Virus record (IMG/VR): IMGVR_UViG_3300032665_000003
Length of the DNA stretch: 64,000 nt
Origin: a virus
Lineage: Duplodnaviria; Heunggongvirae; Uroviricota; Caudoviricetes
Reading direction: 5' to 3' (one strand)
Position numbers and translations under genes: made by a program. Below are positions 1,850 to 64,000 of this stretch, in pieces; position 1 is the stretch's first letter; every line of letters starts with the position of its first letter. The notes below the pieces were generated by a model that saw nothing but the letters and a program-made list of their open reading frames with translations, did not search any database and had not been told where the DNA came from.

Positions 1850-2530
1850 ATGTCATACAACAAAACCAAAACGGACCCCGATCTGGGTCGTAGCGTCCAT
1901 GAACATCTTGTTAAAGTCGGAGTAGAAACTCCGTTTAAAGATAACGGATTAGACCGTAAAGACAAGATTGAAATCATCGAACGAGATTTCGAACATATTA
2001 TGAAAACGTTAGGACTTGATCTAACAGACGACAGCTTGGCTGAAACGCCAAAGCGGGTTGCTAAAATGTACTGCAACGAAATATTTTGGGGTTTGGATTA
2101 TGATGCATTCCCGAAGTGTACGACTGTAGAGAATAAGATGAAATATAACGAAATGGTAGTAGAACGAAACGTGAACGTTCAATCTAACTGTGAGCATCAT
2201 TTTGTGGTCATCGATGGAGTTGCGACGGTCGCATATGTACCTAAGGATAAGGTTCTTGGGTTGTCTAAGATCAATCGCATTGTCGAATACTTCAGTAAGC
2301 GTCCTCAAATTCAAGAGAGACTGACTGAACAGGTATTTCATACTCTGCAATTTATTCTAGATACTGAGGATGTTGCAGTTATGATTGATGCACAGCACTA
2401 TTGCGTGAAATCGCGTGGTGTTGAGGATACCGGATCTTCAACGGTAACTGTTCGTTTAGGTGGTGGATTCAAGACTGACCCTGCTGCTAGAAATGAATTC
2501 CTAAGCATTGCAAGAATGGGAAAATGCTAA
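1850..2530 (+). CDS. folE: GTP cyclohydrolase I
   Basis: TPKRVAKMY, SNCEHHF, GLSKINRIV, RPQIQERLT, HYCVKSRG motifs. Confidence 0.97.
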   Translation: MSYNKTKTDPDLGRSVHEHLVKVGVETPFKDNGLDRKDKIEIIERDFEHIMKTLGLDLTDDSLAETPKRVAKMYCNEIFWGLDYDAFPKCTTVENKMKYNEMVVERNVNVQSNCEHHFVVIDGVATVAYVPKDKVLGLSKINRIVEYFSKRPQIQERLTEQVFHTLQFILDTEDVAVMIDAQHYCVKSRGVEDTGSSTVTVRLGGGFKTDPAARNEFLSIARMGKC

Positions 2531-2736
2531 ATCTAGATTTACATGGTGTACGACATCAAGACGTTGATGTTATGGTGGAAAACTTCATTCTGTTAAATCA
2601 GAAGGAGTTTCCGCTTACCATACTGTGTGGTAACAGTGTAAAAATGATTAAGCTAGCAGAAGCAGTCATAGAAAGAATTGGCTGTGAAGCAAAAATGTAT
2701 CGTTACGGTATCATAACCGTTGAACGATTTACGTAA
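2524..2736 (+). CDS. Small Smr-like domain protein
   Basis: LDLHG N-terminal motif and ILCGNS. Confidence 0.5.
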   Translation: MLNLDLHGVRHQDVDVMVENFILLNQKEFPLTILCGNSVKMIKLAEAVIERIGCEAKMYRYGIITVERFT

Positions 2737-2742
2737 GAAAGA

Positions 2743-3252
2743 ATGAAAATGACATTACAACCAGTATCATATGCATATACTAGTACAAAGGAATACCACG
2801 ATGCGTTTCCTTGTGCTTATCGGCAATGGAGAGCAGATTCTCATTGCAATTTGATTCACGGATATAGCTTTTCTATGAAGTTCTATTTTGGAACTAACGA
2901 GCTAGACGTTCGTAATTGGGCCGCCGATTATGGCGGTCTTAAGGAGCTAAAGAAGGTACTTGAAGACCAATTTGACCATACCACATTAGTTAGTTCTGAT
3001 GACCCGGAACTTGACTGGTATAAAGAAGCAGAAAAGCGTGGTCTTATGAAGTTAACTATACTCCCGAAATTGGGATGCGAAAGCTTAGCCGACATGCTTT
3101 ATAAGTATGTCAATGGAGTTTATATTCCTGAAATGTGGGGGCCTTCCGAGGCGGCCCGGCTGTGGTGCTATCGCGTCGAAGTGCGCGAGACTCAAAGCAA
3201 TATGGCATTCAGAGAAGGGCACCGTGAATGGAATGAGGACCTTTTTGCGTGA
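2743..3252 (+). CDS. queD: QueD-like 6-carboxytetrahydropterin synthase (T-fold)
   Basis: CAYRQWRADSHCNLIHGYS, DYGGLKELK, FDHTTL, CESLA, VEVRET; between folE and queE. Confidence 0.85.
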   Translation: MKMTLQPVSYAYTSTKEYHDAFPCAYRQWRADSHCNLIHGYSFSMKFYFGTNELDVRNWAADYGGLKELKKVLEDQFDHTTLVSSDDPELDWYKEAEKRGLMKLTILPKLGCESLADMLYKYVNGVYIPEMWGPSEAARLWCYRVEVRETQSNMAFREGHREWNEDLFA

Positions 3253-60135: not shown

Positions 60136-60585
60136 CTACTCTTTTAAAATCTCTATAACGCGATATTTTTCTACTAAATCGTCATACACATCATACGACA
60201 CTGCTGCTAATTCAGGGTATTTTCGATTTAACACATGGTCTGTCTTGTTAATTTTATAGCTAAAAACATAGCGTTCATCTAAGTGTGGTTCAATTCCCTG
60301 TGCAATCGCATCTTGATAAGGAATAGTCTTAGGGTATGCAGCGGCTTCGTGCTCAAACTTATACGATGTTATCAACGATACCACTCTACCATCACCATTG
60401 CAGTTTACACAAGTTTTTCTAAAAGTTTTATAGTCTCGTTTGTGATAATCTATCAGTTCTTCCGTTTCAAACGACCCGATACCATTACATTTGGTGCAAA
60501 CTGAAACTTCATTCTTTTTTGTTAGTACAAGTCTAATAGAGTCTGGTGGTGTAACTTTTTCATTCATATTGCAATTATATGACAA
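60136..60585 (-). CDS. Hypothetical protein with DnaJ-type CxxCxGxG motifs
   Basis: CTKCNGIG and CVNCNGDG. Confidence 0.65.
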   Translation of the reverse strand: MSYNCNMNEKVTPPDSIRLVLTKKNEVSVCTKCNGIGSFETEELIDYHKRDYKTFRKTCVNCNGDGRVVSLITSYKFEHEAAAYPKTIPYQDAIAQGIEPHLDERYVFSYKINKTDHVLNRKYPELAAVSYDVYDDLVEKYRVIEILKE

Positions 60586-60627
60586 TTGAAATTAATATTC
60601 AAGCAGTTTGGTTCTATAAATATTAGA

Positions 60628-61077
60628 ATGACTGACAAACTTATAACCATATCGTTCGATGAAATTTTACCAATCTGGCGAAACTATCTGTGGCCCGATA
60701 GGATTTCGACAATCGAAACTAACAGTGCAATGTGCAGAACCGGCGGATATTTAGGTTCAAATATGGAAACACCTGCAACATTCTTCGCTTACATGATAGA
60801 CGGAGAAATTGCAGGAGTCAACAGCGGTCACATGTGCAATGACAAAGAATATCGTTCTAGAGGATTATATGTATTTGAAAAGTTTCGGGGAAAGGGAATA
60901 GGTGTTGTACTGCTGAATGCTACGATTGCACAGGGTAGATCAGAAAAGGCAGTACTATGTTGGAGTTATCCCAGAGATGTTAGTTGGAAGACCTATGCTA
61001 AGTCTGGGTTTAAGTTAACCAGCGATTTTAACCCAAGCGAGACTGGTAACAACGCATATTGCGTGTACTATTATTAG
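60628..61077 (+). CDS. GNAT acetyltransferase
   Basis: YRSRGLYVFEKFRGKGIG, CWSYPR...Y.KSGF; TATAAATA 5 nt before ATG. Confidence 0.85.
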   Translation: MTDKLITISFDEILPIWRNYLWPDRISTIETNSAMCRTGGYLGSNMETPATFFAYMIDGEIAGVNSGHMCNDKEYRSRGLYVFEKFRGKGIGVVLLNATIAQGRSEKAVLCWSYPRDVSWKTYAKSGFKLTSDFNPSETGNNAYCVYYY

Positions 61078-61562
61078 TACCAATTACCTTCAGTGCGCAT
61101 ACGTCTAATAAACGTAGGATATGTGCTACAGATTCCATAGCAATTTAGCTTGACTGTACTCAACAGCCCTCTGTCATTTATTTCAGGAAGAACGACGATA
61201 CTAGAGTTATTTACGGGTACTGTTCCGAAGGTCCACAGTTGACCGCCGCTAGTGGTAACGTACGGTGGAGGATGGGTTATGTCATACCAAAAATAATTAG
61301 GATATGATTTGATCGGCTGTGTAGAAATCCATTCTTGCATTTCGACGTTTCTAGCATTGATCCAAAAACGATTACCCTTCAGATAATCAGGTGTAACTTC
61401 TGTGAGCGGTTGGTCCGTACCTAAATACAAAATACCGTTAACTCTCCAAACATCCACTGATACCGAATATCCATGGTTAAACGCCAAACCGATTTGGTTT
61501 GGTGTGTTGGCTTGATCATAATTTTGACCGTTAAAGATTCCCTGATAAGCGATTAATAACAT
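61074..61562 (-). CDS. Degenerate glycerophosphodiester-phosphodiesterase-like protein
   Basis: IAYQG...ANTP..I..A...G..V.VDVW....LYLG.D.P. Confidence 0.5.
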   Translation of the reverse strand: MLLIAYQGIFNGQNYDQANTPNQIGLAFNHGYSVSVDVWRVNGILYLGTDQPLTEVTPDYLKGNRFWINARNVEMQEWISTQPIKSYPNYFWYDITHPPPYVTTSGGQLWTFGTVPVNNSSIVVLPEINDRGLLSTVKLNCYGICSTYPTFIRRMRTEGNWY

Positions 61563-61579
61563 CTAGTATTTATGAAAAG

Positions 61580-61654
61580 TGGAGCTTCCAATCGGGATCG
61601 AACCGATTTCCACGCGTTGGCAACGCATTGTAATGACCATTATACTATGGAAGC
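61580..61654 (-). tRNA. tRNA-Gly(GCC)
   Basis: GCTTCCA/TGGAAGC acceptor, ATGCG-TTGCCAA-CGCGT anticodon arm, TTCGA, U73, CCA. Confidence 0.93.
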
Positions 61655-61658
61655 ATAT

Positions 61659-61733
61659 TGGAGCGGGTGGCCGGCAACGCTCCGGTCCTCTCTAGCTTGG
61701 AAGGCTAGGGCACATCTCCTATACCACACCCGC
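61659..61733 (-). tRNA. tRNA-Gly(TCC), non-canonical T-arm
   Basis: GCGGGTG/CACCCGC acceptor, CTAGC-CTTCCAA-GCTAG, T-loop AGCGTTG, U73, CCA. Confidence 0.8.
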
Positions 61734-61850
61734 ATAAATCTTCGAAAGTTCCCAGTCAAGTACAGGTCACTTACAACCCTCTATCCTAATAGGACCGATA
61801 CAGCAGTACCGGGCTCCACCAATTGTTTTTTACAGAAACAAGAAACTGAA

Positions 61851-61930
61851 TGGATGCGGGAGGCTGGATTTGAACCACCGATTTCCAGTTTATGAGACTG
61901 GCGAGAACGACCGGACTTCTCTACCCCGCG
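61851..61930 (-). tRNA. tRNA-Met(CAT), initiator-like acceptor
   Basis: C1xA72 mismatch, A11-U24, CCAGT-CTCATAA-ACTGG, TTCAAAT, CCA. Confidence 0.88.
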
Positions 61931-61935
61931 ACATT

Positions 61936-62035
61936 AAACTATTTAGAAGAACACACTTTCTTAATCTCAACGTCACCGGCCGATCAATGATCACCGTTTT
62001 TAGTTTTTTCGTAAGTGTGTTCATCAAAATAGTCT
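61936..62035 (-). other. Long hairpin spacer in tRNA precursor, behind late promoter GATAAATA (62048-62041)
   Basis: GAACACACTT/AAGTGTGTTC and AGACTATTT/AAATAGTTT stems; internal GATC-ATT-GATC hairpin. Confidence 0.55.
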
Positions 62036-62054
62036 AATATTATTTATCTTTTGT

Positions 62055-62507
62055 ACAGCCTGAGATTACAGCTTTAAACGAACGTCTTTGGTCATTACCG
62101 AATCCCTTGCGGGATACTCAATGTTTCTTTGCGGGTCCGGCTCCTTATGAAACCTTCTTCGCTCGAAATGCTATCTTGCCTTTCCTTGCAGGGTCAGACT
62201 CAATAACTACACGTTAACTTTCATCGTTCGTTAGTTTGGCTGCATGTCATGAGGGCGCCAACCCTCTTATCACTCACCGACTGGCTCTGTGACACATCCT
62301 TTCGGACAACACACCTAACTTATCGACTACCGCCTTTCTAGGGACGGATCCTTTCGGATTAGTTCGTGCTTGCATAGAGAGACCATTGGTGGCGCAAGTT
62401 TATAGGAAACCTTGCTTTAACCTCAATTGCTCAAGGCTATCTCATTATCGGGGCTATGCCCCCAATTCTTATTCTAAATTGTCAAAGATCGCTGATTTCT
62501 CAGCTTA
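62055..62507 (-). ncRNA. Large structured noncoding RNA, GOLLD-like
   Basis: No ORF >=60 aa over 62055-62455; many GNRA-capped hairpins on minus strand; own consensus promoter; upstream of tRNAs. Family name is recalled, not searched. Confidence 0.65.
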
Positions 62508-62513
62508 TATTTC

Positions 62514-62542
62514 ATTATATCAAAGACGCTAACGAATGTCAA
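62514..62542 (-). promoter_or_regulatory. Consensus sigma70 promoter driving the ncRNA/tRNA unit
   Basis: TTGACA-17-TATAAT. Confidence 0.88.
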
Positions 62543-62706
62543 CACCTTTTTATAGTTTTTAAATTTTTTATTGAGAACCTGTTGAAACATTTGTTTCTCT
62601 GCGCTCTCTCGATTTTGTTAGTATACTTATATGCTAGACCAAAGTCAATAACTTTTTTCAGTTATTTTAAAAAATACGAAAAGAAAGAGTAAGTCATAGA
62701 CTGTGC

Positions 62707-62948
62707 AAAAAACAGCGGGGCTCTTAAGAGCCACCCTTGTGTGCAATAGACACTTCACAATCTACAAAAACTACATATGTTCGAACAGCAAAGTGCAAAA
62801 TGTCTTTAATAGTTCGGGTCACGTAATTATGATGCCAAAAACGGAGCTGTCAAATGTAAATTTCTAATGAAACTTACGGTGTCTACTCTAATCTCTCTTT
62901 CTTTTCGGGTGGTTTTGCCCTGCAGTTCGCGCTACAAGGCATACCACC
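62707..62948 (-). ncRNA. Candidate structured 3' UTR/ncRNA ending in a terminator
   Basis: GGTGGT/ACCACC enclosing GCCTTGTAG/CTGCAGGGC; long-range AGTAGACAC/GTGTCTATT; GGCTC-TTAA-GAGCC then T6. Confidence 0.5.
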
Positions 62949-62954
62949 AAACCG

Positions 62955-63521
62955 TTAGATGATGTTCTCGGCCTGCAGAACCGCAACAGTCTTATCTGTC
63001 AGATGAATGACGTTGCGAACGTTGGATTCGAGAAGTTCATCTTGCAGCTTTTGCTTTTGCTTCTTGCATTCAGCAACAATGCTGCGGTAATTTTTTACGT
63101 CTTCGGTAGTGAGTACAGACGTTTGGACTTCGCCGGCTCGTCTATAACCGAATGCATCTTCTGCACGAGTGCGGATCTTAGCTAGCTTACCGTCGATGAC
63201 AGCTTGTTCAGCACGAACCTCAGCCTTAGCATAAGAACCGTAGAACTGAATGTCCTTTTCTAGGCGAGCGATATTTGCAAGCGTGCTATTGATATCGTAG
63301 CTGTTATTAACAGCATCAACTGACTTGCGAATCTCGTAGAGGGCATCAAGCAGAGCCGTACGACGACCGACGCTAGTACTAAAAGTAGTAGCAGCCGCTG
63401 CGATTGCAGCAATCGTGTCCTGGAACTCATTCAGCCCAACCGTGTAGTTGAAGTTTAGCCCCTTGATTGCTTCATTGATAGCAACTTGCAGTGCATTTGC
63501 CTTACGCAGTGATACCTTCAT
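62955..63521 (-). CDS. Hypothetical coiled-coil protein
   Basis: 188-aa Ala-rich ORF with GAGGA RBS. Confidence 0.8.
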   Translation of the reverse strand: MKVSLRKANALQVAINEAIKGLNFNYTVGLNEFQDTIAAIAAAATTFSTSVGRRTALLDALYEIRKSVDAVNNSYDINSTLANIARLEKDIQFYGSYAKAEVRAEQAVIDGKLAKIRTRAEDAFGYRRAGEVQTSVLTTEDVKNYRSIVAECKKQKQKLQDELLESNVRNVIHLTDKTVAVLQAENII

Positions 63522-63698
63522 TTTCTATTCCTCTGTAAATTACTTGTTCTTTATACTAAATTACTAGGTGATTGTAAAGTTTTTTGGGTAACTGCTAAAA
63601 GGAATAAATACACTGTGGTAATCAAAGAAGTTGTAGTTCTTTGAAACCCAGTCTGGAGTCCGGGCTGTCCCACAAACATACTTATCTGGAGATCACTG

Positions 63699-64000
63699 AT
63701 GTCAAATAATACCTTTACCTGCACCGCGTGCGACAAATATTTTCACTCGGAACGCGGACTGCGTTCCCATTTACATTGGCACGATCCTACATATGCAGCC
63801 GCATGTTCTAATAATGGTGAAAATATCAGCAAAGGAATTCGAATAAGAGCTAACAAAGATCGAGAAATTGCAACGAGTTCTTACCTACATAATCCTAAAC
63901 ATTGCAAACAGTGTAATAATCCACTGCCGTATGTTAGAAGAGGAGGTACATACTGCGATCAATCATGTGCTGCTAAATTTAACAACGTTGCTAGAGCCAA
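63699..64000 (+). CDS. C2H2-finger/Zn-ribbon N-terminus of a probable HNH homing endonuclease (runs off window end)
   Basis: Manual translation CTACDKYFHSERGLRSHLHWH...CKQC...YCDQSCAAKFNN; ATAAATA at 63604 and GGAG RBS. Confidence 0.6.
   Translation, partial: MSNNTFTCTACDKYFHSERGLRSHLHWHDPTYAAACSNNGENISKGIRIRANKDREIATSSYLHNPKHCKQCNNPLPYVRRGGTYCDQSCAAKFNNVARA

Follow-up and report, generated by a model that had tools for sequence, protein, structure and literature searches.

GOLLD RNAs are among the largest non-coding RNAs of bacteria and phages, and structures of their cages were solved in 2025. The family (RF02032) was reportedly described by Weinberg et al. in 2009, and we know of no function established for it since. 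In the literature, the 3' region is universally conserved and the 5' region is variable (PMC12286853, PMC12990946). A cryo-EM study is available for env-38 GOLLD (PMC12286853); it describes eight bridges, all within 5' domains, which build the cap, places the ring contacts B6 and B7 and the half-shell joints B8-B10 in the 3' domains, lists a single contact, B1, joining 5' and 3' regions, and has the terminal loop L27 pair, within the 3' domain, with P23 and J24/26. Cage contacts of GOLLD are also placed in the 3' domain in PMC12990946, which reviews the Streptococcus agalactiae structures and describes decamers formed by the isolated S. agalactiae 3' domain and a 5' domain that caps the assembly and sets its stoichiometry. 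Since the domains fold separately and the 3' domain self-assembles in vitro, modular behaviour is established for these RNAs. A natural or engineered 5'-domain-only GOLLD was not described in the GOLLD structural literature covered by our limited search, and in the same limited literature we found neither a structure nor assembly experiments for a 5' domain on its own. ROOL (RF03087) is likewise a large GNRA-rich phage RNA located by tRNA clusters, and it forms cages; its 5' and 3' parts are intertwined according to PMC12286853, so that one domain of ROOL on its own is not expected to fold.

Here we report a locus of an uncultured giant phage that keeps the GOLLD 5' cap domain without the 3' domain and is a natural counter-example to universal 3' conservation. 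It is found in a 64,000-nt stretch of DNA (the window) that is part of the 258,859-bp IMG/VR virus record IMGVR_UViG_3300032665_000003, a metagenome-assembled contig. The short RNA is a non-coding element of ~451 nt on the minus strand, with a predicted transcript at 62507-62057 (Table 1). An initial annotation, made from the DNA letters alone, had called attention to a sigma-70 promoter pointing into a region free of long reading frames and packed with mostly GNRA-capped hairpins. This description holds: the promoter P1 matches the consensus at 12/12 positions and is the top promoter-like site within 60500-64000, with a predicted transcription start near 62507; every named minus-strand hairpin is present where it had been placed; and the RNA ends in AAAGCUGUAAUCUCAGGCU before a late-promoter motif and three tRNAs, with the end sequence GCUGUAAUCUCAGGCU directly before the latter. 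No ORF of at least 60 aa lies inside 62055-62455, where the longest reach 48 aa (plus strand) and 33 aa (minus strand); a plus-strand 78-aa ORF at 62456-62692 contacts the 5' edge only.

Table 1. Positions of the short RNA, its parts and the neighbouring elements in the window.
Feature	Position	Strand	Details
Promoter-like site P2	62648-62620	minus	TTGACT-17-TATACT; tandem with P1, upstream of P1
Promoter P1	62542-62514	minus	-35 TTGACA 62542-62537, 17-nt spacer, -10 TATAAT 62519-62514, TG extended -10
Leader hairpin	62504-62491	minus	GCUGA-GAAA-UCAGC; 5' end
GOLLD 5' ("cap") domain, complete	62486-62104	minus	nhmmer profile
Hairpin	62462-62450	minus	GGGGC-AUA-GCCCC
Hairpin	62436-62421	minus	CCUUGA-GCAA-UUGAGG
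Hairpin	62359-62348	minus	AUCC-GAAA-GGAU
Hairpin	62306-62297	minus	UCC-GAAA-GGA
Hairpin	~62265-62250	minus	GAGGG/CCCUC
Kept GOLLD 3' tail	62116-62056	minus	GGGAUUCGGUAAUGACCAAAG, unpartnered 3' strand ACGUUC, terminal hairpin
Chimeric hairpin	62115-62102	minus	AUCCC-GCAA-GGGAU; contains deletion junction
RNA 3' end	62075-62057	minus	AAAGCUGUAAUCUCAGGCU
Terminal hairpin	~62072-62058	minus	loop UAAUCUC (GUAAUCUCAG)
One-mismatch T4-type late-promoter motif	62048-62041	minus	GAUAAAUA (GATAAATA), within conserved block AAAAGAUAAAUAAUAUUAGACUAUUUUGAUGAA
tRNA-Met(CAU)	61929-61855	minus	
tRNA-Gly(UCC)	61733-61659	minus	
tRNA-Gly(GCC)	61654-61580	minus	

The Rfam search by which the initial annotation had proposed to place the RNA in GOLLD, ROOL or OLE came back negative. 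Over the whole window only tRNAs pass the gathering scores, and the regions 62030-62560 and 60500-64000 were searched to E 10. The GOLLD model RF02032, whose gathering score is 150, gives the short RNA 16.1 bits; there was no match to ROOL or OLE (RF01071) to E 10 in either region, and the search of the region returned nothing for introns or RNase P. Weak matches to SpR19, snoRNAs and Lacto-rpoB were attributed to chance. In the alignment to RF02032, the last ~35 model positions (AAAG-acuguC-acuaAAAG-guGUAaUCUCAgcCU) fit the 3' end of the short RNA near perfectly and the remainder of the model is skipped. The end sequence is placed on the last model positions with maximum posterior probabilities and recurs unchanged in the related loci L027 and L004, and the terminal hairpin with its conserved loop, preceded by AAAG, is present. 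Rfam models only the 3' domain, about P14-P27, which is the part missing here, and this is why the GOLLD search fails. We do not assign the short RNA to RF02032, since the defining 3' domain was tested for and is absent.

Comparison with phage sequences led to the 5' half of GOLLD. While megablast against INPHARED phages gave no match, sensitive blastn against cultured phages gave a single one, 57 nt at 82% identity in Sinorhizobium phage Phosso. It falls in an unannotated 1-kb gap which holds a bona fide GOLLD (186.6 bits with RF02032, L002 2841-3309), upstream of the Rfam-modelled part, i.e. in the GOLLD 5' half, and the short RNA is collinear with this half over ~400 nt. We built a 5'-domain profile of 446 positions that includes two loci above the Rfam cut-off, L002 and L005 (205 bits), and leaves out the window. 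With nhmmer the short RNA matches positions 35-424 of this profile at 313.1 bits (E ~1e-93), a score exceeding those of several full-length members; L033, a locus absent from the profile and itself a full GOLLD by RF02032 (185.5 bits), scores 294.5 bits. On these alignments, the short RNA is unambiguously derived from GOLLD. The initial annotation had left open a short GOLLD variant or a new ornate class. The first option stands and can be narrowed to a GOLLD derivative with a deleted 3' domain; the second is unsupported. A new class, or one of the other known large RNAs (ROOL, OLE, group I introns, RNase P RNA), would agree with the lack of any Rfam family at gathering score, but it is at odds with the strength of the 5'-domain homology and collinearity over ~380 nt, with the GOLLD terminal hairpin and with a place syntenic with full GOLLDs, and we give it practically no credence. 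ROOL in particular has no sequence or covariance-model similarity to the short RNA. The reading as an RNA unrelated to GOLLD is refuted by the L033 alignment, the 5'-domain profile and the 3'-domain tail match described below.

Relatives were collected from IMG/VR by scanning for a conserved 5'-domain motif, which gave 26 loci, and further motifs raised this to ~70 profile hits. Additional scans with two 5'-domain motifs and a tail motif returned full-length relatives only. On genome contigs, a scan recovered one real but truncated copy, from a lake MAG; its two other hits were due to chance, and it pointed to no host. No close cultured relative was found through PHROGs and tblastn of the window proteins. 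A neighbouring 162-aa protein identified relatives at 61-73% identity, and those found by this protein and by the RNA have the surrounding genes, the tRNAs, the promoter blocks and the block resembling a late promoter in common with the window. In L033, the full GOLLD occupies the same position, upstream of the homologue of the 162-aa gene, and the downstream flank of L027 is identical over 30 nt. The large relatives carry exactly one GOLLD each; one of them, at 360,683 bp, is a complete genome and has terminal repeats. The short RNA shares with GOLLD the 5' domain of a subfamily common in giant-phage contigs, the terminal hairpin, the phage setting upstream of tRNAs and the syntenic slot, and several relatives have a dedicated sigma-70 promoter of the same kind. 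It differs in its length (~451 nt versus ~830-870), in lacking ~400 of the ~460 3'-domain positions, in having neither linker nor embedded tRNA, and in having no ring-forming or half-shell-joining element.

Support for an RNA structure comes from comparison of homologues, as the single-sequence fold (-134.8 kcal/mol, z = -2.5) is only a modest gain over shuffled sequences. In that fold the leader AGCUGAGA pairs with the strand UCUCAGGCU of the 3' terminal hairpin; we treat this as chance since the complementarity is inconsistent among relatives. In an alignment of 28 homologous sequences, RNAalifold predicts 89 pairs, and 60 of these show compensatory double changes. The leader hairpin has a counterpart at the same place in L033, GUUGA-GCAA-UCAAC, with compensatory changes. 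A tertiary helix 62443-62440/62382-62379, suggested by window-specific changes, was dropped because the alignment register differs between subgroups. These data also bear on the possibility of a coding or regulatory leader, with small translated ORFs or a tRNA-operon attenuator. Two minus-strand ORFs could be considered (33 aa at 62375-62274 and 38 aa at 62590-62474), but they are not conserved in the alignment and the 28 homologues vary by compensatory pair changes rather than by codon conservation, which makes such a leader highly improbable.

The 5' part of the short RNA should fold like a GOLLD cap domain. It keeps 84 of the 89 consensus pairs; among the missed pairs, two are alignment gaps in the hairpin AUCC-GAAA-GGAU, which the short RNA does form, and one has its partner in the deleted part. 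Compared with its nearest relative, it has 9 pairs with double-compensatory changes and 11 with one-sided changes, and a single pair is broken, similar to full-length controls. The terminal branch of the short RNA, at 0.156 substitutions per site, is not long, and none of the family-invariant tail positions has changed. G-U pairs number 17, tied for the most in the core family, a mild excess within the family range, and the consensus-structure energy is nearly the weakest in the core family. Across pair counts, change classes, G-U pairs, energy and branch length, the mild G-U excess is the only hint of decay in the 5' domain. This absence of decay means either that the deletion is recent relative to the branch or that the retained parts are still under selection.

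The 3' end gives a different picture. Against a family profile of the 3' domain (462 positions), the short RNA matches positions 401-461 only, at 42.8 bits (E 1.6e-12, window 62116-62056). No other 3'-domain match, which a split GOLLD could have left, was found in the 258,859-bp record, whose completeness is estimated at 73%. The kept tail is 83.6% identical to L033 2180-2240. Aligned to L033, the short RNA is collinear through the promoter, leader hairpin and 5' domain, then lacks ~415-424 nt, and resumes for the last 61 nt; collinearity with a gap of ~420 nt is seen with L033, L027, L026, L012, L024, L015, L004 and L022. The terminal hairpin follows the 5' domain at a distance of 408-465 nt in the ~60 relatives with enough sequence, versus 35 nt here. 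Among these ~60 family members the short form is unique and the rest are full length. Two gapped patterns, with which both IMG/VR and the JGI metagenomes were scanned, found no second short form; their only hit, L030, is a chance match within an apparent murE-type ligase gene.

The junction is a single UCC-CGCAAGG-G, with the repeat CCGCAAGG at 62112-62105. Relatives carry two such loops, TCCCGCAAGGA and CCTCGCAAGGG, ~424 nt apart, and their corresponding hairpins are UCCCGCAAGGA, which ends the 5' domain, and CCUCGCAAGGG, which lies close to the 3' end. The chimeric hairpin of the short RNA takes its 5' arm from the last 5'-domain hairpin and its 3' arm from the hairpin near the GOLLD 3' end. 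Loss of the sequence between two copies of a C(C/U)CGCAAGG loop characterises deletions that occur between short direct repeats, and as the AUCCC/GGGAU stem follows from the two ancestral arms, later adaptation need not be assumed. In the most probable scenario, an ancestor resembling the full-length GOLLDs at the same place in related phages of ~330-360 kb would have lost ~424 nt, with the break between the CGCAAGG loop closing the 5' domain and the one near the 3' end. Such a deletion would have taken out nearly all of the 3' domain, with its first hairpin, the ring-forming helices and the linker in which a tRNA is often found. It would have left P1, the leader hairpin, an intact 5' domain, the chimeric GCAA hairpin, a tail of ~50 nt and the terminal GUAAUCUCAG hairpin. 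The alignments support the short RNA as a 3'-domain deletion derivative of a full-length GOLLD. At the level of sequence comparison, its homology, the architecture of the deletion and the structural integrity of the retained parts can be regarded as demonstrated.

A tRNA in the linker has been reported for other GOLLDs. We observed tRNA-shaped modules in the linkers of L033 (1840-1910) and L002 (2906-2977), each at 54 bits with the Rfam tRNA model, and one read by eye only in L179 (~5020-4950). The deletion accounts for the loss of this module from the short RNA.

An assembly artefact, or a minority deletion variant in a population that carries the full-length GOLLD, would also produce a junction of this kind. 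The contig is assembled from a metagenome, the junction lies inside a repeated motif, and the pattern scans of IMG/VR and JGI metagenomes supplied no independent second short sequence. The repeat, however, is just 9-10 nt, far under assembler k-mer sizes, and both flanks are collinear with relatives with no other rearrangement, so that we consider an artefact or minority variant very unlikely.

If the deletion is genuine, the question is whether the short RNA is a remnant or a working molecule. Of the two, we slightly favour a remnant, either young or tolerated, over a new form that was selected. It is the one case in ~60 relatives, the pattern scans add no other, the junction requires no adaptation, and the number of G-U pairs and the weak consensus energy point in the same direction. 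A further argument is that GOLLD appears dispensable in this phage group, as discussed below for L031. Retention of P1 is explained by the tRNAs, for which it is needed anyway. On the other hand, the tail invariants are unchanged and the 5' domain is paired as well as in full-length members. The nearest relatives differ by 21-25% in the RNA and have 61-73% identity in the neighbouring protein, and intactness despite such divergence is as compatible with continued selection as with a deletion of recent date. Since the sequence is a consensus of a natural population, the short form is at least not strongly harmful.

The other reading is a selected, working GOLLD reduced to its cap, in which the 5' domain alone is functional in this phage. 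For instance, the cap contacts could hold together an open six- or seven-membered ring, or the RNA could bind the ligand of the cap, with the terminal hairpin acting as a 3'-end or stability element. The intact 5' domain, evolving at a normal rate on a long lineage, fits this reading, as do the conserved tail positions, all kept though their known partners are gone, and the perfect consensus of P1. It is also in keeping with the structural work: PMC12286853 puts the eight cap bridges of env-38 inside 5' domains with one 5'-3' contact, and the domains fold separately, with the 3' domain assembling alone in vitro (PMC12990946). Against it stand the solitary occurrence among ~60 relatives and the failure of the IMG/VR and JGI scans to find a second, a chimeric hairpin that follows from the ancestral arms with no adaptive change, the same G-U count and energy, a promoter explained by the tRNAs, and the status of the 3' domain as the universal core in the literature (PMC12286853, PMC12990946). 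We therefore regard a selected cap-only form as a real but minority possibility. The specific proposal that the 5' domain suffices for function, with its own cap contacts giving an open ring or lid and the terminal hairpin having a role independent of the 3' domain, seems to us rather unlikely.

Whichever applies, a closed dihedral GOLLD cage of 12 or 14 subunits would be beyond the short RNA, because the deleted domain holds B6-B10, the bridges of the ring and the equator, as well as the partners of L27. The nearest comparison is the S. agalactiae 3'-domain construct (P14-P27, decamer, PDB 9LMF; cited in PMC12990946), which is also one isolated GOLLD domain and shows that GOLLD domains fold and can assemble alone. 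That construct is a 3' domain made in the laboratory, whereas the short RNA is a 5' domain occurring naturally. If the short form works, a closed cage cannot be a requirement for GOLLD function, which would then have to be sought in the cap domain. If the short RNA is a remnant, the locus documents the loss of a GOLLD by deletion between its own repeated GNRA loops and indicates that this phage group can do without GOLLD. In both cases, it provides a ready-made construct for studying folding and oligomerisation of the cap domain alone. It also illustrates that GOLLD 5' domains go unseen in annotation based on Rfam.

In relatives the full RNA sits at the corresponding position, and a still closer relative has something else there. 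This is L031 (IMGVR_UViG_3300032242_000723; 333 kb, 92% complete), the closest by protein, in which no GOLLD was found. Absence or replacement of GOLLD in this slot implies that GOLLD is exchangeable and dispensable in the phage group, and on this basis it appears to be dispensable there. In L031 the slot is occupied by an unrelated ORF-free stretch of ~500 nt (2508-3010), located behind TTGACA-17-TATACT and before the same late-promoter block and tRNAs for Met, Gly and Gly. This stretch folds well (z = -4.15) and has no match to an Rfam family or a cultured phage. Possibly, a large RNA not described before has taken the place of GOLLD here.

The three tRNAs lie 128-477 nt downstream of the short RNA on the same strand, with no minus-strand terminator-like site between 62057 and 61930. 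The short RNA is probably transcribed by the host RNA polymerase from P1, to which P2 possibly adds. The P2 region is homologous to the promoter before the unrelated L031 element (window 62670-62612 and L031 2456-2514), and a TTGACA-17-TATTAT homologous to P1 precedes the full-length GOLLD of L033 in the pairwise alignment. The short RNA would form the 5' part of a precursor reaching tRNA-Met and the two tRNA-Gly, and processing of the tRNA precursor would then free it. Early expression by the host polymerase, as proposed in the initial annotation, is putative and has the consensus promoter as its basis. The GAUAAAUA block is a candidate late promoter, and the same block, as TATAAATA in some cases, is found 3' of full-length GOLLD in relatives. 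With a late motif in this block, the tRNAs may be transcribed both early, by read-through from P1, and late.

Several minor features of the region were also noted. In many relatives the interval from the GOLLD 3' end to the tRNAs includes a conserved block AAAAG(A/T)ATAAATAATA.TAGACTATTTTGA(T/C)GAA, which contains the T4-type late-promoter motif TATAAATA (GATAAATA in the window); its coordinates are 62009-62052 in the window and 3022-3055 and 3111-3139 in L031. The tRNA-Gly(UCC) scores 28.9 bits against an Rfam tRNA gathering score of 29 and has an atypical T-loop; ARAGORN calls it. The spacer of ~120 nt between tRNA-Met and tRNA-Gly (window 61744-61862) is 77% identical to L033 2488-2610, the one homologue found, and no tRNA was detected in L033 outside its GOLLD. 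No tRNA or Rfam family was called in the spacer, which could represent either a tRNA that has degenerated or a small RNA. Upstream of the short RNA, a promoter-like TTGACA-16-CATAAT (62853-62826, minus strand) is followed by a 32-codon ORF (62822-62724) and then by the sole minus-strand terminator-like hairpin of the region (62732-62719, with a T-run). By tblastx, L031 shows weak conservation of the ORF region (47% over 34 aa), and 62712-62853 on the minus strand may be a small early gene or small RNA.

Relatives also differ in how the RNA begins. A dedicated -10 or full promoter is seen for the short RNA and for L033, L027, L012, L021 and L024. In L010, L015 and L023, GOLLD has no promoter of its own and begins right after a tRNA 3' end (GGTTCGAATCC...). 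The same RNA therefore seems to be wired into transcription in two ways.
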